64,000 nt of DNA from an uncultured Chthonomonadaceae bacterium (GCA_963817895.1 CAWFQB010000004.1:32001-96000), one strand, 5' to 3'. Counted from the stretch's first letter, positions 6,312 through 35,872 are shown. Translations and numbers: made by a program. Notes: generated by a model not told the origin, from the letters alone.

Positions 6312-6476
6312 AACACCTTACACTTTCGGAAACGAAGGCTTGAAGCCGGTTCTTATCACCTCACTCTAACCAATTCCTTGCTCTGAAAACGATGAGAAAT
6401 GGGAAGAACTCCCTCTTATTGGCATTGTCACTATCTGGACGTGGCTACCACGATAGGCGCACCCAACAAGGGTCAC

Positions 6477-7226
6477 TCACTCCCTGGCTCCCGCACGGCG
6501 CAGAAGGATTACAACGTCAGAATGCTTGTTCTGCATCGCCCATTTGAGCGCCGTCTCTCCTCGTGGACACACCACATTCGGGTTGGCTCCCTTCTTGAGC
6601 AGAAAGGCAACATTGTCCGTTCGCCCGTAGAAGGCGGCAATCATCAATGGAGTTGTGCCATAGCCCAAGCGTGAGTTCAAATTTCCCCCAATGAGGATGG
6701 CATTTTGAATATCGGCAGGCGTGCCGTTTCTGGCAGCCACATACACGGTTCCCTCGACCTGTTCGCGCTGCATCTGGCGATATAGCAAACCAATCCCACA
6801 AAAGAACAAAGCGAACAGTAGAATTGATAATCCCAATCTTGCGTCATTGGGTACTTCCCAGAGATGTTTGTCGTCGCCTGCGCGTGTGGAGTGCGTTCGC
6901 CGCCGCAATAGGAGGAAGGGCAATCCCACCAGAAATGAGATGGGGACAGCACATATAAAGGCTGGAACATACACCTCACCAAGCCATGACAACTCTTTCG
7001 GGGAAATATGCGACCAGACAACATAGACAGAAACACACACGCCTGTGAGATAAGACGCCACAAAACTTGCCGTGACCGAGGCTATTAGGTATTTATGGAG
7101 CAGGCAGTGCGAGAGAATGGACGCAAGCCCTGCTGCTGCCAAAAACACGAGGAAGAAAACGTGGTCTATGTCAATATTTGTTACAGGAGTCATCGTCGCG
7201 TTCCTTTCCCAATGCAAGCCTGCCAT
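6477..7226 (-). CDS. Multi-TM protein with C-terminal ankyrin repeats
   Basis: Four hydrophobic segments; GTTPLMIAA and GETALKWA; ends LLRRAGARE. Confidence 0.85.
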   Translation of the reverse strand: MAGLHWERNATMTPVTNIDIDHVFFLVFLAAAGLASILSHCLLHKYLIASVTASFVASYLTGVCVSVYVVWSHISPKELSWLGEVYVPAFICAVPISFLVGLPFLLLRRRTHSTRAGDDKHLWEVPNDARLGLSILLFALFFCGIGLLYRQMQREQVEGTVYVAARNGTPADIQNAILIGGNLNSRLGYGTTPLMIAAFYGRTDNVAFLLKKGANPNVVCPRGETALKWAMQNKHSDVVILLRRAGARE

Positions 7227-7512
7227 CTACGCAGCGACCTCTGACGCTTGCCGCACGGAACAGCAGACATCAGAAGTGTAGCATCATTTTCGTCTGCCGG
7301 GCGGAGGATTATAGATGTTATCCAAAATGCCTGCTAAAATACCATTCACAATCAAGACGATGCACATAATCACAGGCATGTGGCAAGGTGCTTATCCTTA
7401 TGATGAGCCGCCTGTGCCGCAATGGGATAGAGCATAGCGGCAACGACCCATGTGAGCGCCATAATAATCAAGCCCTCTGGAATGTAGCCGGGGTAGTGCC
7501 GTTTTCTTGGTT

Positions 7513-8172
7513 TCATCCGTGTTTCCACATCCTTCGCTTCATCCCTACATCAGTCCTGTCAGTGCATACATCAGCATCACGACGAATCGGGGCAGCAGAA
7601 CAGACTTCTACATCGTCGGGCAGTTGGAGAAGTTCGCACTTTTCCTCATCGCTCACTTTGCCATCAAGCCATTCGGAGAGGGCAAGCAGGGCTTCGGCGC
7701 GTTCGTGGGCAGAGGGAGGATGAACACGCACTATAAATAAGAATGGCTCCTCTACAAACAACCACAATGAGAATCCACTCGGTGCGATAATATCGCGCCA
7801 GGTCGTTTGAACCTCTTTTTGGCAGTGCGGTGTCCATTGGGTTCCTGTAAACAGGTTATACTTTAGGACGAGTTTGCCCCACTGCCAAAGGTAATCACGC
7901 ATTCCCTCTGCACACGCTATCTTACATTGCGCTTCCTCCCACTGCCAACTCTTACAAGGGGAAGTATAACAAAACACAATTTCATTCTGTTTGGCGAGCC
8001 AGTGATGCGTTGATTCGGCAAACGCATCAGGGAGTACGTGACATGCCCAAGTTGTCACCCGCCGCAGTTCTTCATCCGACCCGCACAAAAACCGCAGCGG
8101 CTCTCCCGGCCCCGGCTTGGTGCGAAACCAGTTCTTAAACCGATACCAGAAGTGAGCCAGACTGTATTTCAT
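7513..8172 (-). CDS. Hypothetical protein
   Basis: 219-aa ORF with GAGGG upstream. Confidence 0.55.
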   Translation of the reverse strand: MKYSLAHFWYRFKNWFRTKPGPGEPLRFLCGSDEELRRVTTWACHVLPDAFAESTHHWLAKQNEIVFCYTSPCKSWQWEEAQCKIACAEGMRDYLWQWGKLVLKYNLFTGTQWTPHCQKEVQTTWRDIIAPSGFSLWLFVEEPFLFIVRVHPPSAHERAEALLALSEWLDGKVSDEEKCELLQLPDDVEVCSAAPIRRDADVCTDRTDVGMKRRMWKHG

Positions 8173-8225
8173 CTTCTGCCCTCGTTTCTTTGCCGTCTCA
8201 TCGCCCGCGCGAACACGACAGGGGC

Positions 8226-8645
8226 TTAATCTTTGATCCCGGCCTGGTGAAGAAAGCGCGCCATCGCCGGGTCTTTAGATTCCTTAGCGAAACGCAGCAT
8301 CGCCTCTCGCTTCAGCATCGCTTCTCGTTTGTCCGGTGAGTTGCTTAGTCTGGCTCCATGCTGCCAGAGAATATTGCATGTTTGTAGATTTCCACTGTTG
8401 ACCGCCATTTCCAGCACGTTAGAACCCGCATCCTCGAAGGTGGGAGGGACGCCCTGTGCTAGAAGCCGCTCCACCTCGGCAGTATGTCCCTTTCCGGCTG
8501 CCTCCCAGAGTTGTTCACCCATTTCATAGGAATGGAAGGCCGTTGTGACAGTATAAACAAACCAGACAACAGGGCAGGCAATACAGGTAAGGACAAGCGA
8601 GCCAATCAAAAGTACACGAAAAGGTTTGGAGAATTTTATTTGCAT
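8226..8645 (-). CDS. Membrane-anchored ankyrin-repeat protein
   Basis: N-terminal TM; LWEAAGKGHTAEVERLLAQG; ends FLHQAGIKD. Confidence 0.8.
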   Translation of the reverse strand: MQIKFSKPFRVLLIGSLVLTCIACPVVWFVYTVTTAFHSYEMGEQLWEAAGKGHTAEVERLLAQGVPPTFEDAGSNVLEMAVNSGNLQTCNILWQHGARLSNSPDKREAMLKREAMLRFAKESKDPAMARFLHQAGIKD

Positions 8646-8663
8646 GGGTCGCCTTTCTCTGCC

Positions 8664-9110
8664 TTACTCCGGCCCATTCACCGCCCGCACTAATTGCTCC
8701 TCATGCCTCTCCTGCCCTTCTGCGGCGGCTCTCAGCAACACAGCCTTTTGTGCCTGCGTCGGTGCCGAAGAAGCGCGAACAAGAGAACCGGGAGCGGGAA
8801 GGTGGGCGGTGTTGGCGCGGGTGAGAGGAACGACATCTTCCACCGTCGCAAATTTTCTGAAACTGGTCTTCATTCCTTTGTAGAAGCAGAAGGTCACTAC
8901 GCTGGACTCAACCGCATATAACGCACGATCTGAATGGAAGGTATAGCGGAGGTCACAGAAAAAATCCAATGCCGAGATGACAACATCTCCTCCGAATTCG
9001 ATGAGCATAAAGCCGCATATTACTGTCAAACAAGCCAGGCTGATGCGTGTAGCCTGTATCCGCAGATACTTCCCCCTGCTTACAATCCGCTTCCCCGTCT
9101 TCGGCTCCAT
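8664..9110 (-). CDS. Constant-ends/variable-core membrane protein, copy 1
   Basis: MEPKTGKRIVSRGKY, hydrophobic core, then PLTRANTAHLPAPGSLVRASSAPTQAQKAVLLRAAAEGQERHEEQLVRAVNGPE. Confidence 0.85.
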   Translation of the reverse strand: MEPKTGKRIVSRGKYLRIQATRISLACLTVICGFMLIEFGGDVVISALDFFCDLRYTFHSDRALYAVESSVVTFCFYKGMKTSFRKFATVEDVVPLTRANTAHLPAPGSLVRASSAPTQAQKAVLLRAAAEGQERHEEQLVRAVNGPE

Positions 9111-9150
9111 CCCTGCGCCTCTTTCTTCTGCTTTATCCATTTTGCCCCGG

Positions 9151-9495
9151 CTAGAAGTCCTCTCCGGGCTTGAGCACCGTCCGCTCTCCCCTCCATATTC
9201 GTCGTTCTTCTCGAACCGTTAATTTGCCTCTGACGTAATACGTGGTTCCCCATGTCCATTCGCGTATCGGCAATATCACAACACATACATCATCCTCACG
9301 AGGAGAAGCCCCTTGAAGCAACAGACGATGCGCGTTTGCATACTTGCCATCCACATCACTCAGAACTGCTTCCACATAGGCACAATCCAAATGCGCCTGT
9401 TTACTTGGTTTCGGCTGTATCTGCATTATCACCAGTGCCAGCAGAATGAAAGCAAGAAGAATAGACAAGGAGAGTCGAAGTCGTTTTTCCAGCAC
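9151..9495 (-). CDS. Small membrane-anchored hypothetical protein
   Basis: GTG start overlaps the TAG of the upstream gene (TAGTG); N-terminal TM. Confidence 0.65.
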   Translation of the reverse strand: MLEKRLRLSLSILLAFILLALVIMQIQPKPSKQAHLDCAYVEAVLSDVDGKYANAHRLLLQGASPREDDVCVVILPIREWTWGTTYYVRGKLTVREERRIWRGERTVLKPGEDF

Positions 9496-10163
9496 TACTT
9501 TTGTCCTCCCACTGCCCGTACCAACTGCTCTGACGAAGTTTCCTGTCCTTGTACGGCGGCGCGGAGTAACACGGTTTGCTGTTCTTGCAACGGCTCGGAA
9601 GACGCGCGTACCAGAGAATCGGGCGCAGGCAGGTCGGCGGTGTTGGCACGGGTGAGGGGGATGCTGTCATGGATTTTTCGGGCGTGTTTGAGACTGACGG
9701 TACTTGCAACGCGACACAGAATTATCCCCAACACCAACGCCGCATAGAAGACAAGGTTCACCGGCACGTACTCCGCTGGCAACCGGTGCCGAGAGGGTTC
9801 TATGGATGCTATAAATTCGTGGGTTTCCTGGGTTACGGAGTCAACATTGATCCGCATGTGCGTAATGGGCTGCGCCAGATAGAAGTCGAAGGCGTTTTTG
9901 ACACAATTGGCGAGGATCAGCAAGACGCCTATCCACACTCCCGCCCTCAACAGGCCGTGTATACCTTTGACAATCACGCCGCGCAGATACTCTCCATACG
10001 GCACGAGGCGCGGTTTGGGTTCTGGTTCGGGTAGCGGTTCGGGTAGCGGCAGAGGCGGATTGTAGTTGTCGCGATCACGGTGGTAGTCCCCGTTGTACAT
10101 GCTCACCGCTTCCAGGCAGGCCGAGAGGTCTATGCGTTTGTCGTCCATCTTCGTCGGTTCCAT
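9495..10163 (-). CDS. Constant-ends/variable-core membrane protein, copy 2 (Pro-rich insertion in the N-block)
   Basis: MEPTK...PLPEPLPEPEPKPRLVPYGEY, two TMs, then PLTRANTADLPAPDSLVRASSEPLQEQQTVLLRAAVQGQETSSEQLVRAVGGQK. Confidence 0.85.
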   Translation of the reverse strand: MEPTKMDDKRIDLSACLEAVSMYNGDYHRDRDNYNPPLPLPEPLPEPEPKPRLVPYGEYLRGVIVKGIHGLLRAGVWIGVLLILANCVKNAFDFYLAQPITHMRINVDSVTQETHEFIASIEPSRHRLPAEYVPVNLVFYAALVLGIILCRVASTVSLKHARKIHDSIPLTRANTADLPAPDSLVRASSEPLQEQQTVLLRAAVQGQETSSEQLVRAVGGQK

Positions 10164-10264
10164 CCCTGCGCCCTCCTTCTTCCTCTGCCCTGTTGCTGTT
10201 TGTCCTCATGTTCGCCATTGCTCACCAGACTCCTGCTGACAACGCGAGGGAACGAGAAATTGAA

Positions 10265-10380
10265 TGCGGCGGATGGGCGGCAGGCAAACACAGGGCGCGG
10301 CAAGTGGGGCATTGCGAGAGTTTGGCATGGTAGTGTATTTAGTCAGTCGCGCAAGTCATTCCAGCACCACCCTCTCGCCG
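10265..10380 (-). repeat. Intergenic repeat copy A (putative promoter/leader)
   Basis: Aligns by eye with 15332..15445; on the minus strand contains TTGCGC-16 nt-TACCAT. Confidence 0.65.
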
Positions 10381-10461
10381 CCAATGCCAACACCGCACGG
10401 GCCACCAGTTTATTAGAGCCGGGGCGAAGAGGGGCGGCATGGTTTCGTTTTTGACGGCTTC

Positions 10462-10950
10462 CTAAACGATGTATTCTCTTACTGATACTTCCAATGCGAG
10501 AATATCGAATGCCCCGTAATCATCAAAACTAACTGCGTAGTGATGTAGATCAGACTCCTTCAGCACATGCCCCAACCGCTCCCCTGGATAGTTTCTAAGA
10601 GGGCCTTTGGAAAGCAGGTTCTCAATATACGGCGAACCTTGAATATCTATCAATCCGAAACAACTCACGCCAGGAGGGTAGTGTTCTAACTCCGGGAAAT
10701 CTTCGTATAGATTCTCGAATGTTCTAAAGCGATACTCGAAGACGTTCTTAAAACGAAATTCTCCATACACCTTTTTTCCGTCAGGCAACCAGTTGAAAAT
10801 GTACTTAAGAACCAAGTGTACGGCTTCATCTGCTATGCCTTGTACTTCGACCCAGGGGCCGTTCACGAAAGCGGTAGACTTGCCGGGAATGGGAATGTTT
10901 ATGAATTGCATTTTGCGTCCTACATGCCGCAGTTTATCCTCACGTTGCAC
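10462..10950 (-). CDS. Hypothetical soluble protein
   Basis: 162-aa ORF starting a few nt after the inferred stop of copy 3. Confidence 0.65.
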   Translation of the reverse strand: MQREDKLRHVGRKMQFINIPIPGKSTAFVNGPWVEVQGIADEAVHLVLKYIFNWLPDGKKVYGEFRFKNVFEYRFRTFENLYEDFPELEHYPPGVSCFGLIDIQGSPYIENLLSKGPLRNYPGERLGHVLKESDLHHYAVSFDDYGAFDILALEVSVREYIV

Positions 10951-10954
10951 CCTC

Positions 10955-11375
10955 TTACCCCTGACCCTCCACCGCCCGTACCAACTGTTCCGGCAGCGTC
11001 TCTTGTCCTTCGGTGGCGGCGCGGAGCAATACAGCCTCCTGCGCCTGCATCGGCTCTGTGGAAGCGCGTACTAGAGTGTCGGGAGGGGCGATCGGCAGTG
11101 TTGTGGCGGGTGAGAGGAACAACCGGTTCGATGGCGCGTACTCTTTGCCCTATTTTCAGTGCTATCCAAAACAGAGCGGCAGCATACAGCATCCAAAAGC
11201 AGAATGCCATTTGCGCTGGAACGGAAGGCATGTACTCCGGGTGTCGCCCCGCAAAGAGCGCAACCATTCCGAAGAAAATTATACACCCCGCGAGTAAACA
11301 CAACTTTGCTTTCTTTAGCAGAAACCGAACATACACCCCTCTGCTCACAATCCACTTGCTCGTCTTCGGCTCCAT
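10955..11375 (-). CDS. Constant-ends/variable-core membrane protein, copy 3; frameshift near 11080
   Basis: MEPKTSKWIVSRGVY...PLTRHNTAD; the shifted frame reads DTLVRASTEPMQAQEAVLLRAATEGQETLPEQLVRAVEGQG*. Confidence 0.8.
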
Positions 11376-11405
11376 CCCTGCGCCTCCTGCCTGTGCTGCC
11401 CTGTG

Positions 11406-12098
11406 TTACTTTCTGCCTTTTTGCAGCAGCGCTACAAGGTCGGGGCGCTTATTGTTTTGTGCAATCGTAAGGGGAGTCCTTCCAGCCTTGTTGGGGTGGG
11501 TGGGGTCGGCTCCGTGTGCCAGCAGAAGCCGGAGGATACTCGTCTCGTATCTATTGTATAAGGCATAATGTAATGCGGTGTCACCCTGCATATTTTCAAC
11601 GGCAGCGTTCGCGCCATGCTCCACGAGCAGCCCCGTCAGTCCCGCATCCCCGCGCAGAGCGGCAAACATGAGTAGCGTATTGCCTTCAAAGTCTTGTTGG
11701 TCAATGTTCGCGCCATGTACCAGCATCGCACGAATCAAGGGCACATCTTCCAGGGGTTTGATGTCTGCGGTAAAACTAGCCGGGGATGCGTAACATTCTG
11801 TTGCATCCGCCAGTAAAAACGCCGTAAAACTATCCTCGGCAAGCGCAGGCGAACGGTGCAGTAAGTGGCTTAGAAGCAATTTCAGGGTAGGGGCAGGCGG
11901 CGGGTTGTAGCGCGTGTTCGGGTCGGCTCCCGCATTGACGAGGGTAAGCGCCTGTCCGATGTCCTTCCGGTCAAGCGCAGCAATCAACTGCCGATTGAGC
12001 GCATACTGTCGTTTAGCCTGCCGCACCCACACATCACAGCCGCCAACCAGTAGCGCGGCTACAAGCACAGACACAACTAGAAAGCGACGAAGTTTCAT
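11406..12098 (-). CDS. Membrane-anchored ankyrin-repeat protein
   Basis: TM, then RQYALNRQLIAAL; GNTLLMFAA, GDTALHYA, GRTPLTIA. Confidence 0.9.
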   Translation of the reverse strand: MKLRRFLVVSVLVAALLVGGCDVWVRQAKRQYALNRQLIAALDRKDIGQALTLVNAGADPNTRYNPPPAPTLKLLLSHLLHRSPALAEDSFTAFLLADATECYASPASFTADIKPLEDVPLIRAMLVHGANIDQQDFEGNTLLMFAALRGDAGLTGLLVEHGANAAVENMQGDTALHYALYNRYETSILRLLLAHGADPTHPNKAGRTPLTIAQNNKRPDLVALLQKGRK

Positions 12099-12345
12099 AC
12101 TCCTCACATTCGCCGCCGTTCGCCAAACTCCTGCTTGTTTACCATTGCATCGGCTCTAATTCAGTTTTCAAATGCGAATTCTTAGGAGCAATTCATTTAT
12201 TACATGGCATTGTGGGGATCAGCGTTGCTGCAAACACTATCAGAACGAAAGTCTGAAACCGCCTTTCACAAAGTACACGTAGTGTCATCAGACAAGAACC
12301 TTGTTTTTGCCACCGCGCCTCTGCTTTACGCGCAAGGAGAACCCC

Positions 12346-13098
12346 ATGCTTGAACACCAGCCCACGACAGAGGAGAACACCGCCGATCTTTTGCCGCAAA
12401 CTCACACTCTCTCTGTTAGGCTGCCGACGCAAGCCTACGCCGTTCTCGTTCGTTACGTGGCACAAACACAATCTGCTAACGCAGACACAGAAACCATTCG
12501 CGCCCAATTGGAAGAATTGACACTTGCGTACTTGGAACTCGACGCCCCACCCCACGAAGCCGCGCAGTCCGCCATCCGGCAATGGGAGAATGAGCGGCTG
12601 GTGCTGGGAGAGGGACAGGCGCTTTCCACGCAAAGTAAACCCTATCATTCCACACGGTCTGCGCGTCCGGCAACGCTTACTGCCCTGAAACTGTTTGGAG
12701 CAGGCGCGTTGGCTTTAACCACGATTACGCCTTTTCTCATTGGCACAAGCGTTCCCTCCATCTGGTACTCATTGATGATATTTCTGATAATCGGGCTGCC
12801 TGCCTTGTTGGGAATAGCGGTCGGAATACGCGCTCGGCAACGTCCTGTCTTGGGAACATTCTACGCTGTAAGTCTGTTGATTCCCAGTGTTGCGCTCATC
12901 ACGGAACTGATAATGGACATCTTCACGCAGTATCCTCACGAAGGCTGGATGTTGGGCATGGACATCGGGCTGTTCTGGCTGCCGATTGGCTGCCTGACAG
13001 CGGGCCTGACCGGATGGGGACGTAACCAGCGCCACAAACGCCAACAATATGCGGTAAACCGAATGACTTCCCTGCACGCGGCGGAAAGTAGACTATGA
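12346..13098 (+). CDS. Hypothetical protein with four C-terminal TM helices
   Basis: AAGGAG RBS before the ATG at 12346; the only plus-strand gene in the array. Confidence 0.7.
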   Translation: MLEHQPTTEENTADLLPQTHTLSVRLPTQAYAVLVRYVAQTQSANADTETIRAQLEELTLAYLELDAPPHEAAQSAIRQWENERLVLGEGQALSTQSKPYHSTRSARPATLTALKLFGAGALALTTITPFLIGTSVPSIWYSLMIFLIIGLPALLGIAVGIRARQRPVLGTFYAVSLLIPSVALITELIMDIFTQYPHEGWMLGMDIGLFWLPIGCLTAGLTGWGRNQRHKRQQYAVNRMTSLHAAESRL

Positions 13099-13207
13099 AT
13101 GGAATTCTCGTGACTGATTTCGGGGCAGCAAAGGGGAATGCAACAAATGTTTGAAGAATGTTCTATACCCGGAATGGAGGGCTTCTTAGAGGGAGTGGGC
13201 CAGGCGG

Positions 13208-13251
13208 ATAACAAGAAGCAGGCGGAAAATTTTCCGCCTGCTTCTTGTTAT
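13208..13251. terminator. 44-bp perfect palindrome with GAAAATTTTC centre, between convergent genes
   Basis: ataacaagaagcaggcggaaaa/ttttccgcctgcttcttgttat. Confidence 0.75.
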
Positions 13252-13350
13252 ACCATTTTTGGATAGTCGTAGGCTCCGATATTGTGCGTTGACGGGGCAT
13301 AGGCATTTGGACATGTTACTCCTGTCCCGCAGAAGCGCGTACAACATGTG

Positions 13351-13842
13351 TCAATCAATGCCTTGCTTGTACTTCCACCAGTCCAGCCCCCATACGGCAA
13401 GCCCTGCGATAAAACAGACCACGCCTAGAAGTATTTGCGTTTGACTGTCATCCGTGTTGGGAGAAGCGCCTTGTACGGCGCGCTCTTGGATGTAGTGCCT
13501 GAACAGGATAAAGCCGCCAATCCCCCAGGCTGCTAAAGGCGTCAGGCAACTTGGCTTCTGGCGTGTAGACGGGTCTGACGAAGACGGTTGGGGCGGCCCC
13601 AAACTGATGAAGTGAGACAGCGCCGCAGGCTTCCCCGTTGGTTTATAGACAAACAGGTAGTACCCGCTGGCACATGCGAGCAAGCCGCCCATTATCCAGA
13701 TGACGTACTTTGCATTGCCTAAAGAAGGCGAGTCTTCGCTAGATACGAAACTGCTCCCAATCCCAAGCAAGGAGTAGATCAAAATAGCCCAGGCAACACC
13801 GCGTAGCCATTTGGGTTTAGTTGGTTGGGGTTGATCGTCCAC
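13351..13842 (-). CDS. Hypothetical membrane protein (about four TMs)
   Basis: GTG start directly after the orphan tail; hydrophobic segments. Confidence 0.7.
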   Translation of the reverse strand: MDDQPQPTKPKWLRGVAWAILIYSLLGIGSSFVSSEDSPSLGNAKYVIWIMGGLLACASGYYLFVYKPTGKPAALSHFISLGPPQPSSSDPSTRQKPSCLTPLAAWGIGGFILFRHYIQERAVQGASPNTDDSQTQILLGVVCFIAGLAVWGLDWWKYKQGID

Positions 13843-14017
13843 TGGTTGCGCTTCCTTTCTCCTGTGCTTCTGCCGATGCTCTCACCAACAGTTCCTCATA
13901 CCTCTCCTGCCTTTCCTGTGCCGCCCGAAGCAACACAGCCTTTTGTGCCTGCGTCGGTTCCGAAGATGCGCGAACTAGGCTGTCGGTGATGGGAAGGTCG
14001 GCGGTATTGGCATACTC
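13817..14017 (-). pseudogene. Orphan copy of the constant C-terminal LxRA tail (no start codon, N-block or core)
   Basis: Between two in-frame TAA codons: EYANTADLPITDSLVRASSEPTQAQKAVLLRAAQERQERYEELLVRASAEAQEK... Confidence 0.8.
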
Positions 14018-14025
14018 TTATTGGT

Positions 14026-14418
14026 TCAACCCAGAGGAGATTTCTTCCATCTGCGGTTGACTTTCTTGTACTTCCTTTTTAGTTGCTCGTAATAACGCCG
14101 TTCCGACTGTTCACGATTACGAGGCGTGGTGCGGTTGTGTGTCGCCACTGGGTCTACTTCGGAAACCTCCACAACGCGAATGGTTATGCCATCGCCAACG
14201 TGCAGCGTCTCGTCTAACCATTTCCCAACTTCAGAGAATTCTTCTGTTCCGCAAACCGCGCTAACATGAAAATTGACTTTATTATCATGCGGATAATCAC
14301 GAGGGTCTCTGACAGACTGATGCTGAAGCCATGTGAGCATTGCCGACATTAAGCCATTCCCCGTTATGCCAGTGGTACATTTCTTGCCACCATTGATACT
14401 TATCTCGAAGGCTAACAC
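14026..14418 (-). CDS. Hypothetical soluble protein
   Basis: GGAGG-aact-GTG start; (M)LAFEISINGGKKCTTG...W....L.VGD.ITIRVVE. Confidence 0.7.
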   Translation of the reverse strand: MLAFEISINGGKKCTTGITGNGLMSAMLTWLQHQSVRDPRDYPHDNKVNFHVSAVCGTEEFSEVGKWLDETLHVGDGITIRVVEVSEVDPVATHNRTTPRNREQSERRYYEQLKRKYKKVNRRWKKSPLG

Positions 14419-14449
14419 AGTTCCTCCAACTTCTGAATAAATATGTTTC

Positions 14450-14863
14450 CTATTCTTGTTCCACAGACGCCCGTACCAACTGCTCAGGCGGTGTCTCCAC
14501 CCCTTCTGCGGCGGCGCGGAGAAGGACGGATTCCTGCGCCTGCGTCGGTTCTGATGACGCGCGAACAAGAGAATCGTGCGCGGGCAGGTGAGAGATAGTG
14601 GCAAGTTGTACGTTATTGCGCTCACAATAATCTTGCGTAAAGCGGTACAGCGTGAGCCAGGGCGCTTGCGTCTTCTTTCGTAAGAGCGACACTAGACCCA
14701 ACAATGTCGGTAGGTGTTCTTTGTCCGATGACGCTTGTAGTTCTTCTGCCAATATGGTTTCAAAAACTTGGTGCCAGTCAATATGGTATCTCTTGCGTAC
14801 TAACAGGGATGGTATTTCGCTTGGCTTATTAGTTTCAGGTTCGCTACCCGTCGTCGGCTCCAT
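14450..14863 (-). CDS. Constant-ends protein with a soluble helical core, copy 4
   Basis: MEPTTG...; tail HLPAHDSLVRASSEPTQAQESVLLRAAAEGVETPPEQLVRASVEQE. Confidence 0.8.
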   Translation of the reverse strand: MEPTTGSEPETNKPSEIPSLLVRKRYHIDWHQVFETILAEELQASSDKEHLPTLLGLVSLLRKKTQAPWLTLYRFTQDYCERNNVQLATISHLPAHDSLVRASSEPTQAQESVLLRAAAEGVETPPEQLVRASVEQE

Positions 14864-14884
14864 CTCTGCACCCTCCTGCCTGTG

Positions 14885-15286
14885 CTACCACATATCTTCT
14901 TCGGCTGTTTTGACCGCCTCGCAGAACTTTGAGTATTCAGGATGATCGGGTTTGAACGTACTTATGCCTGTCCAGTGCATAGTGGTTCCCTCGGCTTCGT
15001 TTACCCAGCCTGTTCCAGAACAACGCATGGTGAGCGCACCGTCAGGCAAAAAGCGAGCAGAAGAAAGGTTGTACCAGGTATAAAACTGAGTATTCTGAGC
15101 ATTTGTCACCATCAGGCTCTTGATGGCCCCGGAACTATGTATTGAATACTTATCCTTCTGGATCGAAGTATAGTACATGCGCGGCTTCTTCTTTGCCACT
15201 TCCGTTTCTTTAGTCCTCTCGCTCTCAAACCGCTTCCGAATTGCTCGCACTTGTGGCGTCCACCTTCCAAGCGCTCTACTTCCCAC
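14885..15286 (-). CDS. Hypothetical protein (start uncertain)
   Basis: 133-aa ORF; its stop is followed by the shared cacaggcaggagg leader. Confidence 0.5.
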   Translation of the reverse strand: MGSRALGRWTPQVRAIRKRFESERTKETEVAKKKPRMYYTSIQKDKYSIHSSGAIKSLMVTNAQNTQFYTWYNLSSARFLPDGALTMRCSGTGWVNEAEGTTMHWTGISTFKPDHPEYSKFCEAVKTAEEDMW

Positions 15287-15331
15287 ATTCGCCGCCGCTT
15301 ACCAAACTCCTGCCCTTCTGTAAATAAATGC

Positions 15332-15445
15332 TGCGGCAAACTGGGCGGCAGACAAATTGAGGCGCGGCAAGCAGGCGTAGCAAGAGAGTGGCACGGTAGT
15401 GCCCCTTGTCAGCCGCGCAAGCCATCCATTGCCGCCCTCTTGACG
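15332..15445 (-). repeat. Intergenic repeat copy B (putative promoter/leader)
   Basis: Aligns by eye with 10265..10380; TTGCGC-16 nt-TACCGT on the minus strand. Confidence 0.65.
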
Positions 15446-15584
15446 TTGCTCCCTTCCATACAAGCCAGGCCACCAATGCGCGAAGGCAGCGGACAACGGG
15501 AATAAGGAGCCACCATACCCGGTGGTGGATGCGGTGGCTTTGATGCTGTTTGCGGTTTAGAGAACCCTGCGAAAATGATTGCTG

Positions 15585-15863
15585 CTAAACTTTCCAGCGA
15601 CCGTCTACATATTGTTTGAGTTCGTTTCGGTAATCACTCGCACTGCCGCGCTCCATTTCAGGAACATGGACATCGCAGTACCGATTGATAAACTGATAAG
15701 CACTTAGCCAATCTGCATCGCTCTGATCACGAAGCCACAAGGTCAGACCCAATCGTGTTACCACTACGCCTTCCGCAGTACGGCGGTCGATCTCTTGCGC
15801 TAACGCCTCCTCATACTTCGGGCCACGATAGGGACACGTCAGCGGATTACCAGTCAAAGACAT
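15585..15863 (-). CDS. Small helical protein resembling the core of 14450..14863
   Basis: YEEALAQEI...TRLGLTLWLRDQSDADWLSAYQFINRYCD. Confidence 0.7.
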   Translation of the reverse strand: MSLTGNPLTCPYRGPKYEEALAQEIDRRTAEGVVVTRLGLTLWLRDQSDADWLSAYQFINRYCDVHVPEMERGSASDYRNELKQYVDGRWKV

Positions 15864-15883
15864 TTTTATCTCCCTAACCTGTG

Positions 15884-16099
15884 TTACTCTCTATGCCCCT
15901 CCACCGCCCGCACCAATTGCTCCTCATGCCTCTCATTCCCCTCGGTTGCGGCTCTCAGCAACACGGCCTCCTGCGCCTGCAACGGTGCCAAAGAAGCGCG
16001 AACCAGAATGTCAGATGGCTGAATTGGTGGCTCTGGTTCTCCTAACAAAACCACTATCACCCGCTCTATAAACTGACGCTTCCCCGTCTTCGGCTCCAT
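15884..16099 (-). CDS. Constant-ends protein with almost no core, copy 5 (71 aa)
   Basis: MEPKTGKR...DILVRASLAPLQAQEAVLLRAATEGNERHEEQLVRAVEGHRE. Confidence 0.8.
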   Translation of the reverse strand: MEPKTGKRQFIERVIVVLLGEPEPPIQPSDILVRASLAPLQAQEAVLLRAATEGNERHEEQLVRAVEGHRE

Positions 16100-16216
16100 C
16101 CTTGCGCCTCCTTCCTGTCTCTATGCACTGCCGTCTCCCGCCTACGCTCCCGGCCTCGTATCCTGCCTCTGTTGGTGGGGAGGGCTTCTGCGGCTTCTGT
16201 GTCCCTGCGTGTCGGC

Positions 16217-16633
16217 TTACTCTTTGGCTCCGGCATGTTGGAGAAGGCTGATTACTGCCTTAACGTCTTTAGTGCGTTGGCTGGCAGGGTAGTTGTGTAA
16301 ACCTACCCACCTTATAGGCAAATTGTACTTCGCGAGTTCTAAGGCTGAACTATCAGCAGGATTTTGTCGGCTGACAGTGTTGAGCCACAACCGCCAACTA
16401 GGGGTACTCACATAATAGTCTGAGAACCATAATCCCCGCGCATTTGCACCGGCTCCCTGTTGGAGCAATCGTGAAACGGCAGGAGGATCGGGAAATAAAA
16501 TGGCAGCAATCAACGCTTGGTTCAACTTTGCTTGTCGCCATGCCTGCCACGTCAATACAGCAGGTACAGCCATCAGTATCACGAGCAGCCCGCAAACAAG
16601 TAAAGTCAAACGCAAAAATCGGTGTTTCTTCAT
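16217..16633 (-). CDS. Membrane-anchored degenerate ankyrin-like protein
   Basis: TM, then WRQAKLNQALIAAI, LLQQGAGANA; ends LLQHAGAKE; ATGA overlap with copy 6. Confidence 0.8.
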   Translation of the reverse strand: MKKHRFLRLTLLVCGLLVILMAVPAVLTWQAWRQAKLNQALIAAILFPDPPAVSRLLQQGAGANARGLWFSDYYVSTPSWRLWLNTVSRQNPADSSALELAKYNLPIRWVGLHNYPASQRTKDVKAVISLLQHAGAKE

Positions 16634-17121
16634 ACTTTCCTCTGCCCTTCCACCGCCCGTACCAATTCCTCCTCATGCCTATCCTGCCCTTCTGCGGCGG
16701 CTCTCAGTAAAACGGCCTGCTGTGCCTGCATCGGCTCGGAAGAAGCGCGTACCAGGCTGTCAGGAGCAGGAAGGTCAGCGGTATTGAAGCGGGTGAGAGG
16801 AACGCCAAGATTAATCTGGTTAGCCCTGTTTTCTGCGGCTTTGTAGGCGCGAATGGTTGCTCGCAAAGGGGTTTTCATCAGCATCAATAAATGGGAAGTC
16901 GTTTGGTGGCAGGGCGCATCTTGAGCATATAGCATTCTCGGAAAGTGTCTTATAAGGCCGTCTAAGATAGATAATATGATGAGACTTGGCAACAACACTA
17001 TTACCTGACATACCACCACAATGCAATGAAAAATGCACAAAGCCATCCAAGCCTCGCGAAGGAACATTCGCCGTACATACTCCCCTTTACTCACAATCTT
17101 CTTACCCGTCGTCGGCTCCAT
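16630..17121 (-). CDS. Constant-ends/variable-core membrane protein, copy 6
   Basis: MEPTTGKKIVSKGEY...PLTRFNTADLPAPDSLVRASSEPMQAQQAVLLRAAAEGQDRHEEELVRAVEGQRKV. Confidence 0.85.
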   Translation of the reverse strand: MEPTTGKKIVSKGEYVRRMFLREAWMALCIFHCIVVVCQVIVLLPSLIILSILDGLIRHFPRMLYAQDAPCHQTTSHLLMLMKTPLRATIRAYKAAENRANQINLGVPLTRFNTADLPAPDSLVRASSEPMQAQQAVLLRAAAEGQDRHEEELVRAVEGQRKV

Positions 17122-17163
17122 CCCTGCGCCTCCTGCCTCTGCTGTCTGTCCTGTGGCTGTTCG

Positions 17164-17475
17164 TCAGTTTCGGTAGTGAACGCTCGACTCCTGCTGCCCT
17201 GCTTTCACGAATTCTATTCCTCTCTCGTCCCATACGCGCACGAAAATTAAATAAAAGCCACTCCCGCCGTCTATGCTCCCTTGATGTCCGACGCGCCATT
17301 GCCGCCAGTGGCGCAGAGGCGTCACGTAGTAATTTCGCTCCTCCAACTCTCTAAAGACCCTACCCTCGGCTGTGGTGTACGTTTTCGTATGATTGGGGAG
17401 AGGCCGAGCAATCCAACAGAGTGCCGCAAGCATCAGAACTAGGGGCATCTTCACGAGACAAGAGAGGCTGTTCAT
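17164..17475 (-). CDS. Small exported hypothetical protein
   Basis: GGGGAG-c-ATG; hydrophobic N-terminus. Confidence 0.55.
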   Translation of the reverse strand: MNSLSCLVKMPLVLMLAALCWIARPLPNHTKTYTTAEGRVFRELEERNYYVTPLRHWRQWRVGHQGSIDGGSGFYLIFVRVWDERGIEFVKAGQQESSVHYRN

Positions 17476-17602
17476 GCTCCCCACATTCGTCATTGCTACC
17501 AAGATTTCTACCTGCCTTTCGCCTCACTCCTCTGCTTCCCCGCCTGCTCTTTTCAGGTTCGCAGTCCCCTTCGACCTGTCTGTACGTCCTGCCATCTCCC
17601 GC

Positions 17603-18235
17603 TTACGCTCCCAGCCTCGTGTCCTGCCCCTGTGGGGAAGGTTGGGGCGGTTCTGCTGTTTCTGTGTCCCATACGGAGCCATTTTTGGTATGCTTGACGC
17701 CAAGCAACACGCGGATCGCCGTCACATAGCGCTCAAACACTTTACTGCGTTGTGAGCCGGTCTCCTGGCTCCTCAATGCTGGCTTGCTTACGTCTGCGTC
17801 AGAGGGATAGTCACAAGTATTCTGAATCCTTCGTGACTTCCCTTTCTGTCCCGACTGCTCAATCATCAGCCCCCAGCGTTCGGAACCGTTGAACGGCCCC
17901 GGCTTCTCCTGTAACCATTGCCACAGGTGTACCGCCTCCATTTCCTGCCAGAACTGCTTCCAGGCTTGGGGAGAAGGAGTGACTTCTTTGACATCTGGTA
18001 TTATTATCCCGAAGTGTACCGGGAAAGTGAAGTATTCCAGTGCCTTGCCGTTCCAGTTGACTTCATAGTGGTCTTTTCTATCTTCAATATACAGTGCGAA
18101 GCACTTGGGGAGGTACGGCGCTTTTGTGTTGATAGGCGAATTCTTTTTGGACTGTGCTGGTAAGGGCAACGTATAAATGGATAAGAGAACAAAAAGCCAT
18201 GCGAAACTAAGTTGATTCGTCTTCCTGTTCATCAT
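17603..18235 (-). CDS. Exported hypothetical protein
   Basis: Signal-peptide-like N-terminus; start overlaps the stop of copy 7. Confidence 0.7.
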   Translation of the reverse strand: MMNRKTNQLSFAWLFVLLSIYTLPLPAQSKKNSPINTKAPYLPKCFALYIEDRKDHYEVNWNGKALEYFTFPVHFGIIIPDVKEVTPSPQAWKQFWQEMEAVHLWQWLQEKPGPFNGSERWGLMIEQSGQKGKSRRIQNTCDYPSDADVSKPALRSQETGSQRSKVFERYVTAIRVLLGVKHTKNGSVWDTETAEPPQPSPQGQDTRLGA

Positions 18236-18721
18236 TCCTCCTGCCCTTCCACAGCCCGCACCAACTGCTCAGGCGGCGTCTCGTGTCCCTGGGCGGCGGC
18301 GCGGAGGAGGACGGACTGCTGCGTTCTGTTGCGGTACCGAAGACGCGCGTACCAGACTGTCAGAGGCGGGAAGTTCGGCGGTGTTAGCGCGGGTGAGGGG
18401 CTGTAAGTCCCTAATAACAATTCTACTTTTATGACTTTCTCGCCACAGAACACGAAGGGTATAGCCAAGTGGCCCCAATAAGAAAAGACACCAAAAAAAA
18501 GCCATCATTGCATGTGTAATCGTAGGAACATATCTGACGTTATAACGCATCAATCCGCTCTGTTCCTGTGCGTCTAAGGCGCAGGCGGAGGGAATGTTTA
18601 CCAGTAACAACACGATGCCGAGGCCGCAAACCAAAACGCTGCTACATAGAAATAATGAGAGTGACTGCGCCTTAACATATTCGCCCTTGCTCACAATCCG
18701 CTTGCCCATCTTTCGCTCCAT
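18232..18721 (-). CDS. Constant-ends/variable-core membrane protein, copy 7; frameshift near 18325
   Basis: MERKMGKRIVSKGEY...PLTRANTAELPASDSLVRASSVP; the shifted frame reads QQSVLLRAAAQGHETPPEQLVRAVEGQEE*. Confidence 0.8.
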
Positions 18722-18739
18722 CCCTGCGCCTCCTTCTCT

Positions 18740-19186
18740 CTACTCCTGTCCATTCACCGCCCGCACCAATTCCTCCGATGGTGTCTGACTTCCCTCTGAG
18801 GCGGCACGGAGCAATATGGTTTGTTGTACCTGAACCGGCTCCGAAGAAGCGCGAACAAGGCTGTCCGCGCCGGGTAGGTCGGCAGTGTTGGAGCGGGTGA
18901 GAGGGAGGCCCGAATCTGTTTCTTTCGCTTCTTTTACTGCACCTACGCCGAAGTAGAGAAGCGCAACGGATAAACCACCCATGAACAAGATTATAAACAC
19001 AAGAAGCGGTAACTCCGACCATTTGAAGCGCACAAGTCCCATGCCAAACAAACCACAGGTGCAGACGAAACAAAACCCTCCGATTAGAAAAACAATTACG
19101 CCGAAGGAAGATAAGGCCAACTTACTTCCAAGATTGACGGCGTACCTGCCTTTACTCACGATCTGTTTACCCGTCTTCTGTTCCAT
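18740..19186 (-). CDS. Constant-ends/variable-core membrane protein, copy 8
   Basis: MEQKTGKQIVSKGRY...PLTRSNTADLPGADSLVRASSEPVQVQQTILLRAASEGSQTPSEELVRAVNGQE. Confidence 0.85.
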   Translation of the reverse strand: MEQKTGKQIVSKGRYAVNLGSKLALSSFGVIVFLIGGFCFVCTCGLFGMGLVRFKWSELPLLVFIILFMGGLSVALLYFGVGAVKEAKETDSGLPLTRSNTADLPGADSLVRASSEPVQVQQTILLRAASEGSQTPSEELVRAVNGQE

Positions 19187-19288
19187 CTTTACGCCTTTTG
19201 TTACTCTGCATGTCTGCCATTTCAGCATATTACAACTTCGAGGCTAAGAGCGTTTAGAAAAAGTAAAATCCTGCGTTTCTATTCGGCC

Positions 19289-19714
19289 TCAATGTCGCCT
19301 CGCAACGTATTGAAAGCGTTGCGCTTTCACTTCGATGATGCGCCTGCACGGGGCAAAGTAGGCATCAGAAAAGACTTTTTCTAAACGCTCTAACAATGCC
19401 AGCCCCAGAAATGTTGCCAGCAGTGGAAGCAGGAACATCACCAGCACAGCCATCGCATAGAAGGCATGATCGGGATAACGCCCGTTCACGGCTGTCACTG
19501 CCCAACAGCCGAAAACCACATTGACCACACTGCTGATACACAAGCCAACCATCCAAAAGGCTCCGACAACTATCATATCAGGACTGCCACTGCGAACCGC
19601 CTCTCCCAAGCGCCCTCCGATCCACATAGCGATCTGGCAGGCACATCCAGGCTGAGATAACCAACGTCCGAGACCAAGAAGTATGAATATCGTCACTGAC
19701 GCAATTTTGGACAT
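19289..19714 (-). CDS. Hypothetical membrane protein
   Basis: Several hydrophobic segments. Confidence 0.55.
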   Translation of the reverse strand: MSKIASVTIFILLGLGRWLSQPGCACQIAMWIGGRLGEAVRSGSPDMIVVGAFWMVGLCISSVVNVVFGCWAVTAVNGRYPDHAFYAMAVLVMFLLPLLATFLGLALLERLEKVFSDAYFAPCRRIIEVKAQRFQYVARRH

Positions 19715-19867
19715 GATGGTTTCGTAGCCTCTGCACAATCGTGAAGGCAAGGTCGGTAATCACTACATTATCTGATACAGCAGTGTAGGCTTACGCCTAC
19801 TGTGGTGATCTTCGCTATGGCTCATTCCGGCAAAAGGGCCAATGGCTTGCGCCGGTCGAGCCACAAA

Positions 19868-20467
19868 TTACCGTTTCGCGCCTGCGTTGAGAAGCATTTG
19901 AACAATCTCAGGATGATGAAATTCGCGTGCATAGTGGAGCGCACCCCAATTGCTGTCTTCGTGATCGTAGACATCTACATCGGCTCCTCGGTCAAGAAGC
20001 GCTTGCACAATGTCCGTGTATCCTTCGGCAGCGGCCCAGATGAGAACAGGCAGATCGTCGTCGTTGAGAGCGTTGAAATCACGCGCGCCATGTTCAATCA
20101 GGGCTTTGACGACAACAGCATCGCCATGACTTTGTTTCATCCCTAACGCCAGTTGCAGTGTGGAGCGCGGATATTCTTCCATATCATCTGCGGCGTTTGT
20201 GACTGCGGGAGATCGCTGATAATACGCATGAAACACTTGCCAGAACGTTGGAAGTGGTTTGTCGCTGTCACGCGCATTGGCGTTGGCTCCGGCGTCTAGC
20301 GCGTTCAGCACGGCATTAGCGTTGTCGGCAAGGATAGCAGCAATCAGGTCATGGTCAACATGCTGTTGCCGATACTGCTTGTACGGCAAGGCGCATACAG
20401 CCAGCACGAACAACAAAGGAAACAGGATAGGAGAGAAATGGGCAGGACGTTGAAAATGGTGGATCAT
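19868..20467 (-). CDS. Membrane-anchored ankyrin-repeat protein
   Basis: TM, then YRQQHVDHDLIAAI, GANANARD, LIWAAAEG; ends LLNAGAKR. Confidence 0.88.
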   Translation of the reverse strand: MIHHFQRPAHFSPILFPLLFVLAVCALPYKQYRQQHVDHDLIAAILADNANAVLNALDAGANANARDSDKPLPTFWQVFHAYYQRSPAVTNAADDMEEYPRSTLQLALGMKQSHGDAVVVKALIEHGARDFNALNDDDLPVLIWAAAEGYTDIVQALLDRGADVDVYDHEDSNWGALHYAREFHHPEIVQMLLNAGAKR

Positions 20468-20688
20468 GGTTTACGCTCCGCGTCGCCGCACGTATCATCT
20501 GATCAGAAGGCTCGACAATTCATAGACACTTCTTGATCTTGAGCCTACCTCTGATTGCTGGTTGTCTTCATCCCAGTGGAACATAAACGTTCCTCGCCAG
20601 TATGCACCATCTGCTGCCAAGTTGTTAGTGTACGAATGGAGTAAACTTCTACAAAGGCAAGCAATGAACAATTCGCCTTGAAGTGTGT

Positions 20689-21288: not shown

Positions 21289-21340
21289 CAGGCCAGACGC
21301 GATCAGGGTAGTACGGGAGGCGTGTGGCGTGTCATAGCGT

Positions 21341-35870: not shown

Positions 35871-35872
35871 GC

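Follow-up and report, generated by a model that had tools for sequence, protein, structure and literature searches.

A family of putative membrane hairpins with conserved ends and a shared tri-LLR tail forms a gene array in a Chthonomonadaceae genome

Polymorphic toxin-immunity and poly-immunity loci are a known kind of locus. The Lpl lipoproteins of Staphylococcus aureus have a core domain that is conserved. The PEP-CTERM, GlyGly-CTERM and LPXTG tags combine a motif with a transmembrane (TM) helix and a cluster of basic residues, and are processed by a dedicated membrane enzyme. The bacterial homologs of caspases have a preference for Arg or Lys. PMC11630599 reports that immunity to ionophoric CDI toxins is conferred by small membrane proteins. 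EACC1 and Pepco are described in a preprint (bioRxiv 10.1101/2025.11.14.688446) as small effectors that form pores once they have been cut at a specific site, which in one case lies in a C-terminal tail. The array presented below is compared with these systems.

Layout of the array and its island

The window is a 64,000-nucleotide stretch of DNA from an uncultured Chthonomonadaceae bacterium (GCA_963817895.1 CAWFQB010000004.1:32001-96000). The original prediction described in it eight genes that share an N-terminal block (N-block) and a tail on either side of unrelated middles, and that alternate with partner genes. All eight were found on the minus strand and are named here by their lower coordinate (8664, 9495, 10955, 14450, 15884, 16630, 18232 and 18740). 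The finer points of the prediction also held: five copies have a full N-block and three (9495, 14450 and 15884) a partial one, the tail of 40-55 residues is found in all copies, stop and start codons overlap at 9495, 16630 and 18232, and a leader, GAGGCGCAGGGATGGA, lies at most of the starts. This ribosome-site leader consists of AGGAGG, a 7-nt spacer and ATG. It has six matches with at most three mismatches, every one at the start of a family gene, compared with 0.6 expected by chance, and none of 100 shuffles reached six. Most dispersed family copies in the genome have the same leader.

Three copies are canonical, namely 8664..9110 (longest ORF to 9140), 16630..17121, which served as query and structure target, and 18740..19186 (longest ORF to 19228); 8664 displays the N-block, two TM helices, a GVPLTR segment and a tri-LVR tail. 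The copy at 9495..10163 carries an N-terminal extension (an ACLEA..MY...YHRDRD insert and a long loop), a form that is a conserved subfamily with full-length orthologs in other genomes (P0151, P0176 and L015, 16812-17618). In two copies an indel of 1-2 nt beside a short run divides the gene between two frames, 10955..11375 at a CCCC run immediately past NTAD, and 18232..18721 by 1 nt at an AA run within the tail. The copy at 14450..14863 lacks TM helices and consists of a truncated N-block, a soluble core and the tail; the core is homologous to the gene at 15585-15863 (35% over 48 residues, E 1e-9). The mini copy at 15884..16099, 71 residues long and also TM-less, joins the beginning of the N-block to the tail, the DNA of which is close to that of the 8664 and 16630 tails. 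A ninth element, 13820..14017 on the same strand, is a 5'-truncated orphan tail that runs from ANTADLP, has no start codon and lies directly past the stop of the gene at 14026. Five of the nine family elements in the window are aberrant. Direct repeats of 89-173 nt bracket each array unit.

The partner genes, all on the minus strand, are diverse. The partner following 8664 (8226..8645) is small, with an N-terminal TM helix and ankyrin repeats (weak Pfam match), and that following 16630 (16217..16633, 4-nt overlap) is a TM-anchored paralog of the ankyrin genes, itself without a Pfam match. The gene after 9495 (9151..9495) encodes an N-terminal TM helix or signal; like the gene after 14450 (14026..14439), it has no family match and no paralog in the genome. 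The soluble protein encoded after 10955 (10462..10950) and the exported, 210-residue protein encoded after 18232 (17603..18235, 4-nt overlap) are orphans, and both, the two partners tested, occur in only one of the 41 genomes of the order, the source genome. The partner of 15884 (15585..15863) encodes 92 residues and is the homolog of the 14450 core. Further genes lie between the units: a membrane-protein gene without a family match (13351..13842), which the orphan tail overlaps at its end, a gene without a family match upstream of 14450 (14885..15286) and a gene for a small exported or TM protein upstream of 16630 (17164..17502). In front of each of the latter two stands a D7 repeat copy. Immediately upstream of 10955 is a TM/lipobox-like ankyrin gene (11406..12107), and this ankyrin-then-family pair recurs in other genomes (P0128, as a read-through; L009 and L014). 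NCBIfam, PHROGs and PADLOC returned nothing for the partners and Pfam only ankyrin repeats in some of them; a DUF6843 match in the Pfam scan belongs to a flanking gene. The alternation of family and partner genes does not recur elsewhere: the arrays of relatives contain no interleaved partners, and at one locus (L024) five family copies stand back to back.

The array is contained in a stretch of ~27.5 kb (4180..31676, not assigned to a strand) that has no counterpart at the syntenic locus of G212, the only same-genus genome, from which the whole array region is absent. Among the products of this island are many exported orphans and six ankyrin paralogs with a TM anchor. It also holds a defence-type module (23436..26979, minus strand) comprising a DEAD/DEAH helicase (23436-25928), a caspase domain (25900-26469) and a weak EACC1-like gene (26500-26979), with the array ~4 kb downstream.

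Conserved ends, variable cores and a separate tail module

The predicted pattern of constant ends and a variable core was confirmed. In an alignment of 35 sequences invariant or near-invariant columns occur solely in the N-block and the tail, and a canonical member of ~150 residues has a basic peptide (MEPKTGKRIVSKGEY) at its N-terminus, followed by two TM helices whose sequence is unconstrained, the conserved GVPLTRANTADLP segment and the tail. The claim that the middles are unrelated stood largely at the sequence level, but the cores share their length (67-104 residues) and a two-TM layout. When 15 cores were compared on their own (105 pairs, both TM-less copies left out), the median z was 0.68, with z>3 in eight pairs and z>5 in two; the reversed-sequence control gave z>3 in five pairs and z>5 in none. 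The constant ends are equally evident in solitary copies and in other genomes, and the pattern therefore reflects selection on the protein.

The family is unannotated. As had been proposed, it matches no recognised family: Pfam, NCBIfam and PADLOC gave no matches for the family copies, PHROGs gave none for family and partner genes save one weak match of unknown function, and no library match explains the family. Holins, small TM proteins whose genes lie beside an endolysin gene in phage lysis cassettes, were considered and rejected, with that single PHROGs match and no lysin domain in Pfam scans of 27 + 22 proteins, which covered the island as well as its flanks and included seven HEAT-type proteins encoded on other contigs. 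The genome contains ~23 family copies on seven contigs; most dispersed copies are solitary, beside ordinary genes, and none of the four tested has a syntenic counterpart in G212. Searches returned 131 family homologs at E<=1e-3. The full family was detected in five of 201 genomes of the phylum, all from a single taxonomic family; each of the four strong carriers has 8-19 matches. Among the genomes searched it is confined to a few genera of the Chthonomonadaceae, a lineage of soil bacteria. The original prediction had guessed the lineage as Armatimonadota, which is correct. A crude motif tally of 210 homologs, confounded by fragments and pattern errors, gave 136 with N-block and PLTR, 23 with the N-block only, 34 with PLTR only and 17 with neither.

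The AlphaFold2 model of 16630 (mean pLDDT 81) contains strand segments only at residues 9-10 and 107-108. The N-block is predicted to pair with the GVPLTR segment past the second helix, which would bring the two conserved ends together at the same face of the membrane. Judged by how charge is distributed and by an even number of TM helices, this would be the cytoplasmic face. The tail is modelled with low confidence (pLDDT 53-70); in the model of a HEAT-type protein its own tail is not docked, with pLDDT values of 54-61 at LLR motifs two and three.

The tail is a module in its own right: throughout the order, proteins of several unrelated architectures end in it, among them HEAT-repeat and other membrane proteins. 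It is hydrophilic, is positioned past the last TM helix and contains three invariant L-[LV]-R motifs spaced 14-15 residues apart. One example in the window is a HEAT-type protein (1746..2270, minus strand) that has the same tri-LLR tail at its end and no TM helix predicted in its ORF. The tails of the small family and of HEAT-type proteins align, with invariant LRA/LLR/LR columns, and in an alignment of 49 HEAT-type sequences the three LLR motifs provide nine of the 11 invariant columns. Within the genome, 50 ORFs bear the tail, which lies within 25 residues of the C-terminus in 43; at least one TM helix is predicted in 38. The module was found in 36 of the 41 genomes of the order (2-81 matches each), and at E<=1e-6 in nine of 151 genomes of the phylum, all in families f1 and f2. 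In public data its profile matched 2,014 representative protein clusters at E<=1e-3; with the cut-off at E<=1e-10 the number was 234.

Origin and possible roles of the array

The reading we favour, at about even odds (a probability of roughly 0.5), is that the array consists of local paralogs of a family of inner-membrane hairpins with a shared cytoplasmic recognition tail, formed by tandem duplication, divergence and decay, not by cassette exchange. These processes would have operated inside a strain-specific, defence-type island, and turnover is seen in the absence of the island from the syntenic G212 locus, the lack of synteny of all four dispersed copies tested and the five aberrant elements of nine. 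The disordered tri-LLR tail may be a multivalent recognition signal, read by a putative factor common to the order, which might be an adaptor, scaffold or protease. As a membrane anchor or sensor, the hairpin would be free to drift or diversify in sequence. A diversified membrane sensor or immunity repertoire is conceivable. Counting against the favoured reading are the co-directional, tight packing with partners, including the three stop/start overlaps, for which it offers no explanation, the undocked tail in the HEAT-type model, and the distribution of caspase genes, which does not follow that of the tail.

In the original prediction both variable slots could be altered by recombination. On that reading the N-block and tail act as portable homology arms, between which cores and partners are swapped, deleted or duplicated without an integrase. 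The direct repeats around every unit are consistent with this, as are exact shared runs of 20-30 nt in eight of 35 valid pairs (the others have runs shorter than 20 nt) and the homology of the 14450 core to a gene that stands on its own, two genes further upstream in the direction of transcription. Breakpoints at block edges in three aberrant copies (the 15884 mini copy, the 14450 chimera and the orphan tail) are likewise as a cassette would predict, and this much of the prediction stood; the proposed mechanism was not supported. The blocks are only 60-81% identical in DNA, and third-codon-position identity at conserved residues is 0.47-0.55 compared with 0.40 expected from codon usage. For most pairs the blocks are close to saturation at synonymous sites, and there is therefore no sign of cassette exchange. 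The subgroup 8664, 15884 and 16630 shows higher values (0.68-0.77), in favour of exchange, and gene conversion or recent duplication could account for them. Against exchange stand also the equal constancy of the ends in solitary copies and across genomes, the uninterrupted arrays of relatives, the orphan status of both tested partners and the fact that variant forms are conserved subfamilies. Recombination-swappable slots are thus highly improbable.

A poly-immunity locus, in which the TM hairpins confer immunity to membrane-acting toxins and the partners (periplasmic ankyrin proteins and exported orphans) are further immunity proteins gathered in an island, would fit the hypervariable membrane segments at the cores, the accessory, multi-copy and fast-turnover nature of the family, the ankyrin paralogs and orphan exported proteins of the island, and its defence-type neighbourhood. 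It is nevertheless unlikely: the Pfam scans revealed no toxin gene, Rhs/CdiA-type protein or known immunity family, the copies elsewhere are mostly solitary beside ordinary genes, and an immunity role leaves unexplained the conserved cytoplasmic ends and a tail shared with HEAT-type proteins. By analogy with EACC1 and Pepco, the tail might instead keep the hairpin inactive until an Arg-specific protease, cutting past an LLR Arg, freed a pore-former. Each invariant motif is indeed two hydrophobic residues and Arg followed by a small residue, the caspase/weak-EACC1/helicase module is close to the array, and among the genomes searched with both profiles a C14 domain was detected in five of five family carriers compared with one of six non-carriers, genomes that are related and not independent. 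However, the family matches neither EACC1, Pepco nor any PADLOC model, Pro follows the Arg in most HEAT-type tails, and most copies are distant from protease genes, none of which adjoins any of the 15 dispersed loci surveyed by inspection of ORFs. Caspase genes and the tail differ in distribution, with a caspase in 16 of the 41 order genomes and the tail in 36, and many genomes without a C14 match, for example G036, G127, G210, G214 and G221, hold 14-36 tails each. Protease activation is thus distinctly improbable.

Comparison with described systems

Recombination cassettes and shufflon-like systems have near-identical bracketing DNA repeats, which these blocks, at the identities given above, are not. 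The array resembles poly-immunity loci in its small genes, packed tightly in one direction, in its ankyrin and orphan proteins, in the variability of its membrane segments and in its setting in a strain-variable island. It differs in that no adjacent toxin gene, which would combine a conserved trafficking part with a variable toxin domain, was found by Pfam and no partner fell in a known immunity family in Pfam, NCBIfam, PHROGs or PADLOC, in the conservation of both ends and not one, and in the mostly solitary copies elsewhere.

EACC1 and Pepco, as described in the preprint, are similarly small, non-enzymatic, membrane-acting proteins with a regulatory terminal segment, and a caspase and a weak EACC1-like gene adjoin the array. 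In contrast to their soluble latent monomer or beta-barrel, the family would form an integral helical hairpin; its copies had no Pfam or PADLOC match, and the 15 dispersed loci revealed no general protease link. The Lpl arrays of S. aureus are also tandem paralogs in a variable genomic island. Here, however, there is neither a lipobox nor a Pfam domain, the N-terminus is a basic peptide, and the ends are conserved and the core is not, the opposite of Lpl. The tags of the PEP-CTERM/exosortase, GlyGly-CTERM/rhombosortase and LPXTG/sortase systems resemble the tri-LLR tail as short C-terminal modules on dozens of unrelated proteins of one lineage, with variable copy number. The tail is not built from a TM helix with basic residues clustered behind it but is hydrophilic, thrice repeated and past the last TM helix. 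Of possible processing enzymes, the profiling covered C14 caspases, whose distribution differs from that of the tail. Like those tags, the tail stands at the very end of many proteins of its lineage that are otherwise unrelated (43/50 ORFs, several architectures and 36/41 order genomes).

Array genes and the hairpin family

Eight minus-strand genes between 8.2 and 19.2 kb of the window, named here by their start coordinates (8664, 9495, 10955, 14450, 15884, 16630, 18232 and 18740), open with an MEP(K/T)TGK-type block and close with a common C-terminal tail of 40-55 amino acids, as the original prediction had described. The N-block is complete in five of these copies and partial in 9495, 14450 and 15884; direct-repeat analysis returned the tail as eight copies of 89-173 nt and the N-block with its leader as five to eight copies. 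The leader, GAGGCGCAGGGATGGA, contains AGGAGG, a 7-nt spacer and ATG, and on its sequence reads as a strong ribosome-binding site. It was matched six times with no more than three mismatches (0.6 expected by chance), each time at the start of a family gene, and is common to most family copies in the rest of the genome. A ninth element, missed by the original prediction, is a tail without a start codon (13820-14017) that starts exactly at ANTADLP. In copies 10955 and 18232 the reading frame is broken in two by a 1-2 nt indel adjoining a short run, and these are either true pseudogenes or assembly errors. Between 4500 and 23500 there are 15 promoter-like sites (13.8 expected) and 16 terminator-like sites (19.6 expected). 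A perfect palindrome with a 20-bp stem followed by a T-run (13208-13251), lying between the convergent genes 12301-13098 (plus strand) and 13351-13842 (minus strand), is likely a bidirectional terminator.

The constant-ends pattern is a property of the family and not of the array locus. A hidden Markov model (HMM) of the tail, run against the whole genome (7.48 Mb, 14 contigs) translated in all six frames, located ∼23 family copies on contigs C1-C6 and C9. The 17 copies that were aligned display a canonical layout of N-block, first transmembrane (TM) helix, short loop, second TM helix, basic juxtamembrane stretch, GVPLTRANTADLP and three L-[LV]-R motifs, while the 9495 form, which carries an N-terminal insert, is a conserved subfamily with further members in the database proteins P0151 and P0176 and at loci L015 and L025. 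The full hairpin family is present in 5 of 201 genomes of the phylum, all five belonging to one taxonomic family. The original prediction recognised no known family here, and the hairpin family is indeed new to the libraries searched: no copy matched Pfam, NCBIfam, PADLOC or PHROGs, and the ESM Atlas gave no usable match to the 16630 protein. A database search with the same protein returned 131 matches at E≤1e-3, all lacking both a functional name and a Pfam domain; the organism of one record is a Chthonomonadaceae bacterium. Open papers on Chthonomonas or Armatimonadota, membrane proteins, C-terminal motifs and HEAT repeats yielded no description of the hairpin, HEAT-type or tail families.

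Whole-protein BLAST aligns the canonical copies end to end (16630 and 8664 are 43% identical over 165 amino acids, E 4e-36) because the conserved ends carry the alignment. When the ends were removed from 15 copies, leaving out the two that lack TM helices, the 105 core pairs gave a median z of 0.68 against shuffled sequences, with z>3 in eight pairs and z>5 in two; the reversed-sequence control gave five and none, respectively. The cores are therefore alike in length and two-TM layout while their sequence similarity is mostly undetectable, and the view that the middles are unrelated is a fair description to which a few pairs are exceptions. In an alignment of 35 sequences the invariant and near-invariant columns are confined to the N-block and tail, the hairpin containing no conserved column.

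AlphaFold2, applied to the family alignment, returned a helical hairpin with a mean pLDDT of 81. The model contains only two strand segments, both confident, at residues 9-10 (N-block) and 107-108 (GVPLTR), and these would appear to pair with each other. Such pairing, creating a juxtamembrane unit on one side of the membrane, would explain the joint conservation of the two ends. In both TM-less copies the N-block is without its IVSKGEY part, and the PLTR segment is not intact in either. A Foldseek search of the PDB with the hairpin model gave no match at E≤0.001, the best being a generic helical protein (E 3.1).

The tri-LLR tail as a shared module

Sequence comparison indicates that the tail is an independent module with a wide distribution. 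Larger membrane proteins with HEAT-like repeats, frequently encoded in tandem, match the tail HMM at their extreme C-terminus, and the HMM has matches in at least two further protein architectures; a HEAT-type protein with the tail lies in the window at 1746-2270. When tails of the hairpin and HEAT-type families are aligned together, columns L-R-A, L-L-R and L-R are invariant and constantly spaced, and ETPPEQL[LV]R is common to both. Among 49 HEAT-type sequences from many genomes, 9 of the 11 invariant columns are the three LLR motifs. In the source genome the tail lies within 25 amino acids of the C-terminus in 43 of 50 tail-bearing ORFs, and 38 of the 50 have at least one predicted TM helix. 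Tandem arrays of larger tail-bearing membrane proteins, comprising the HEAT type and a second type with a GIKPR..NG..YY motif, were located in this genome at C12:13472-17383, C1:535520-540994, C3:162335-166351, C4:665682-668519 and C4:647763-649602 (L001-L005).

Searching 1.84 billion proteins with the tail profile identified 2,014 representative clusters at E≤1e-3. Of the 41 genomes of the order, 36 carry the tail, with between 2 and 81 matches apiece; the source genome has the most (81) and a genome of the same genus has 60. Across the phylum, 9 genomes out of 151 have it at E≤1e-6, and these nine fall into just two families, both in Chthonomonadales.

The tail of the hairpin model is helical at pLDDT 53-70. 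Modelling of the HEAT-type protein (pLDDT 86) left its second and third LLR motifs unstructured and its tail undocked from the HEAT domain of the chain, so self-docking was rejected. A tail predicted to be disordered yet carrying short invariant motifs is what might be expected of a recognition signal for another protein.

Partner genes and the evolution of the array

The original prediction held that family genes alternate with unrelated partner genes. In the window this stands, as a same-strand gene follows every family element at a distance of 21 nt or less, or overlaps it; the arrangement is not general elsewhere. At most of the 15 dispersed loci surveyed, 55-170 nt separate the family gene from ordinary, unrelated neighbours or from convergent genes, and across 24 related loci in Chthonomonadaceae and Chthonomonadales assemblies the arrays consist of family genes back to back without partners between them (five at L024, three each at L023 and L027). 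Most array partners have no paralog in the genome, no match in Pfam, NCBIfam, PADLOC or PHROGs explains the non-ankyrin partners, and the two partners tested each occur in 1 of the 41 genomes of the order, the source genome only. Only one kind of neighbour recurs, a TM-anchored ankyrin gene like 11406, located directly upstream of a family gene at L009 and L014, and the read-through protein P0128, a fused ortholog from another genome, joins the two. An ankyrin ORF lies within 1.5 kb of a family gene in 7 of 39 cases in the related loci.

Interspersed through the island, all on the minus strand, are six genes for paralogous proteins with ankyrin repeats (6477-7226, 8226-8645, 11406-12107, 16217-16633, 19868-20467 and 20689-21288). 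These proteins begin with a TM or lipobox-like signal and carry a W/YRQ..L...LIAA motif downstream of the TM; five strong full-length paralogs of the 11406 type (41-66% identity) lie on C6 and C14. Four genes have a 37-nt repeat, D7, at their 5' end or immediately ahead of it (10200-10236, 12098-12134, 15277-15313 and 17475-17511), and the copies before 9495 and before 14885 also have ∼100 nt further upstream in common. D7 may be a duplicated promoter or leader region that marks repeated multi-gene units.

According to the original prediction, the variable slots could be exchanged as cassettes through recombination between the homologous N-blocks and tails. Blocks that serve as recombination substrates would be expected to have homogenised DNA, which is not what was found. 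Tail DNA is 60-81% identical among copies, and third-codon-position identity at conserved residues (0.469 in dispersed pairs, 0.477 between window and dispersed copies and 0.552 within the window) is close to the 0.40 expected from genome codon usage alone. In 8 of 35 valid pairs the longest exact shared run is 20-30 nt, and it is shorter in the others; efficient RecA-dependent exchange requires identical runs of this length or longer. With synonymous sites near saturation, a segment constrained to hydrophobicity alone is expected to lose all similarity. Synonymous identity is raised (0.68-0.77) within the subgroup of 8664, 15884 and 16630, which either is younger or has exchanged sequence.

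Local rearrangement has clearly occurred in the array, and three such events are the sole observations that favour cassette exchange: copy 15884 has no hairpin, the soluble core of 14450 is homologous to a separate gene at 15585-15863 (35% over 48 amino acids, E 1e-9), and the orphan tail is a remnant truncated at its 5' end. These events fit deletion and fusion in a decaying cluster. Given the divergence of the blocks, the swappable-slot mechanism is not supported, and duplication and decay of the hairpin family is the best reading of the array. The case carries a caution, since two selected cytoplasmic peptides around a free-drifting membrane anchor can mimic a cassette pattern without exchange.

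The island, a proposed tail reader and known defence modules

In G212, a genome of the same genus, counterparts of the window's glyoxalase gene (1172-1659, 84%) and GNAT gene (3563-4179, 82%) are collinear with that of 31677-31857 (83%), only ∼100 bp separating the last two. At this locus G212 therefore has nothing corresponding to ∼27.5 kb of the window, an interval that contains the entire array, although the right junction is not clean, a match of ∼180 bp being followed by divergence. At the far end of the island, a weak primase-polymerase or replication-initiator-like gene with winged-helix motifs (27404-28750, plus strand) and an XRE-type regulator (30856-31533, plus strand) tentatively suggest a mobile origin; neither integrase nor tRNA genes were found in the window. 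For four dispersed copies the syntenic position in G212 was checked: flanking genes match at 70-83% but the copy is missing each time, indicating that the family belongs to the fast-turnover accessory genome.

Several other features of the window were observed. The ∼1.6 kb at 34772-36400 has three ∼80% identical copies in G212 and looks like a multi-copy mobile element. The island gene 7513-8172 (minus strand, 219 amino acids), which has no match in the family libraries, has five tandem paralogs (∼30-33%) ∼400 kb away on the same contig (C4:434308-439932). A membrane-protein ORF at 19289-19750 (minus strand) contains segments of 33-39 amino acids that are 90-100% identical to short ORFs at C3 526188-526286 and C1 1587227-1587490, and may embed a short repeated element. 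The ORF at 21598-21972 (minus strand, 124 amino acids) contains two HAF repeats (TIGR02913, E 6e-21), and the genome has numerous paralogs of it.

The best reading of the data is of lineage-specific membrane hairpins that duplicate and decay, their cytoplasmic ends presenting the tri-LLR tail, clustered in a strain-specific defence-type island. The two cytoplasmic ends of each hairpin would form one unit that presents the recognition tail. We further propose, with a probability of about 0.3, that the tail is an undescribed kind of cytoplasmic C-terminal recognition tag linking dozens of membrane proteins per genome (up to 81) to one protease or adaptor reader of the Chthonomonadales, and that the MEPKTGK hairpins are a fast-diversifying sensor or effector repertoire feeding this reader and concentrated in the defence island. 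Motifs so strongly conserved on an apparently disordered tail, carried by as many as ∼80 proteins in one genome, are usually the sign of a dedicated recognition machine. As the LLR arginine follows two hydrophobic residues, an arginine-specific caspase-like protease was suggested; a C14 caspase was rejected as the general reader, since only 16 of the 41 genomes of the order have C14 whereas 36 have the tail, and several genomes with 14-36 tails have no C14 caspase. Among genomes searched with both profiles, C14 is present in all five carriers of the hairpin family and in one of six non-carriers, an association that is only a lead, given the relatedness of these genomes and the link of both traits to large genome size.

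Two or three sizeable families, the hairpin, the HEAT-type membrane proteins and the shared tri-LLR tail, are without a Pfam, NCBIfam, PADLOC or PHROGs entry. Armatimonadota have few cultured members and have received scant experimental work. Chthonomonas calidirosea is cultured and carries a tail protein (P0310), making the question accessible at the bench, and finding the machine that recognises the tail would expose a lineage-specific layer of membrane-protein control in the phylum.

The island also encodes, on the minus strand, a DEAD/DEAH helicase (23436-25928) that resembles Hachiman HamB, its best PADLOC matches being PDC-M23B and HamB, an ORF with a caspase domain (25900-26469) and, at 26500-26979, a gene weakly resembling EACC1, whose E value of 9e-4 falls short of Pfam's cut-off. 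Since the helicase reading frame overlaps that of the caspase by 29 nt, and alignment to the caspase profile ends at position 185 of 233, the two could be a single fused protein interrupted by a frameshift. The gene order across 23436-26979 matches that of EACC1-caspase-sensor modules, which have been shown to be protease-gated pore-forming defence systems (bioRxiv 10.1101/2025.11.14.688446).
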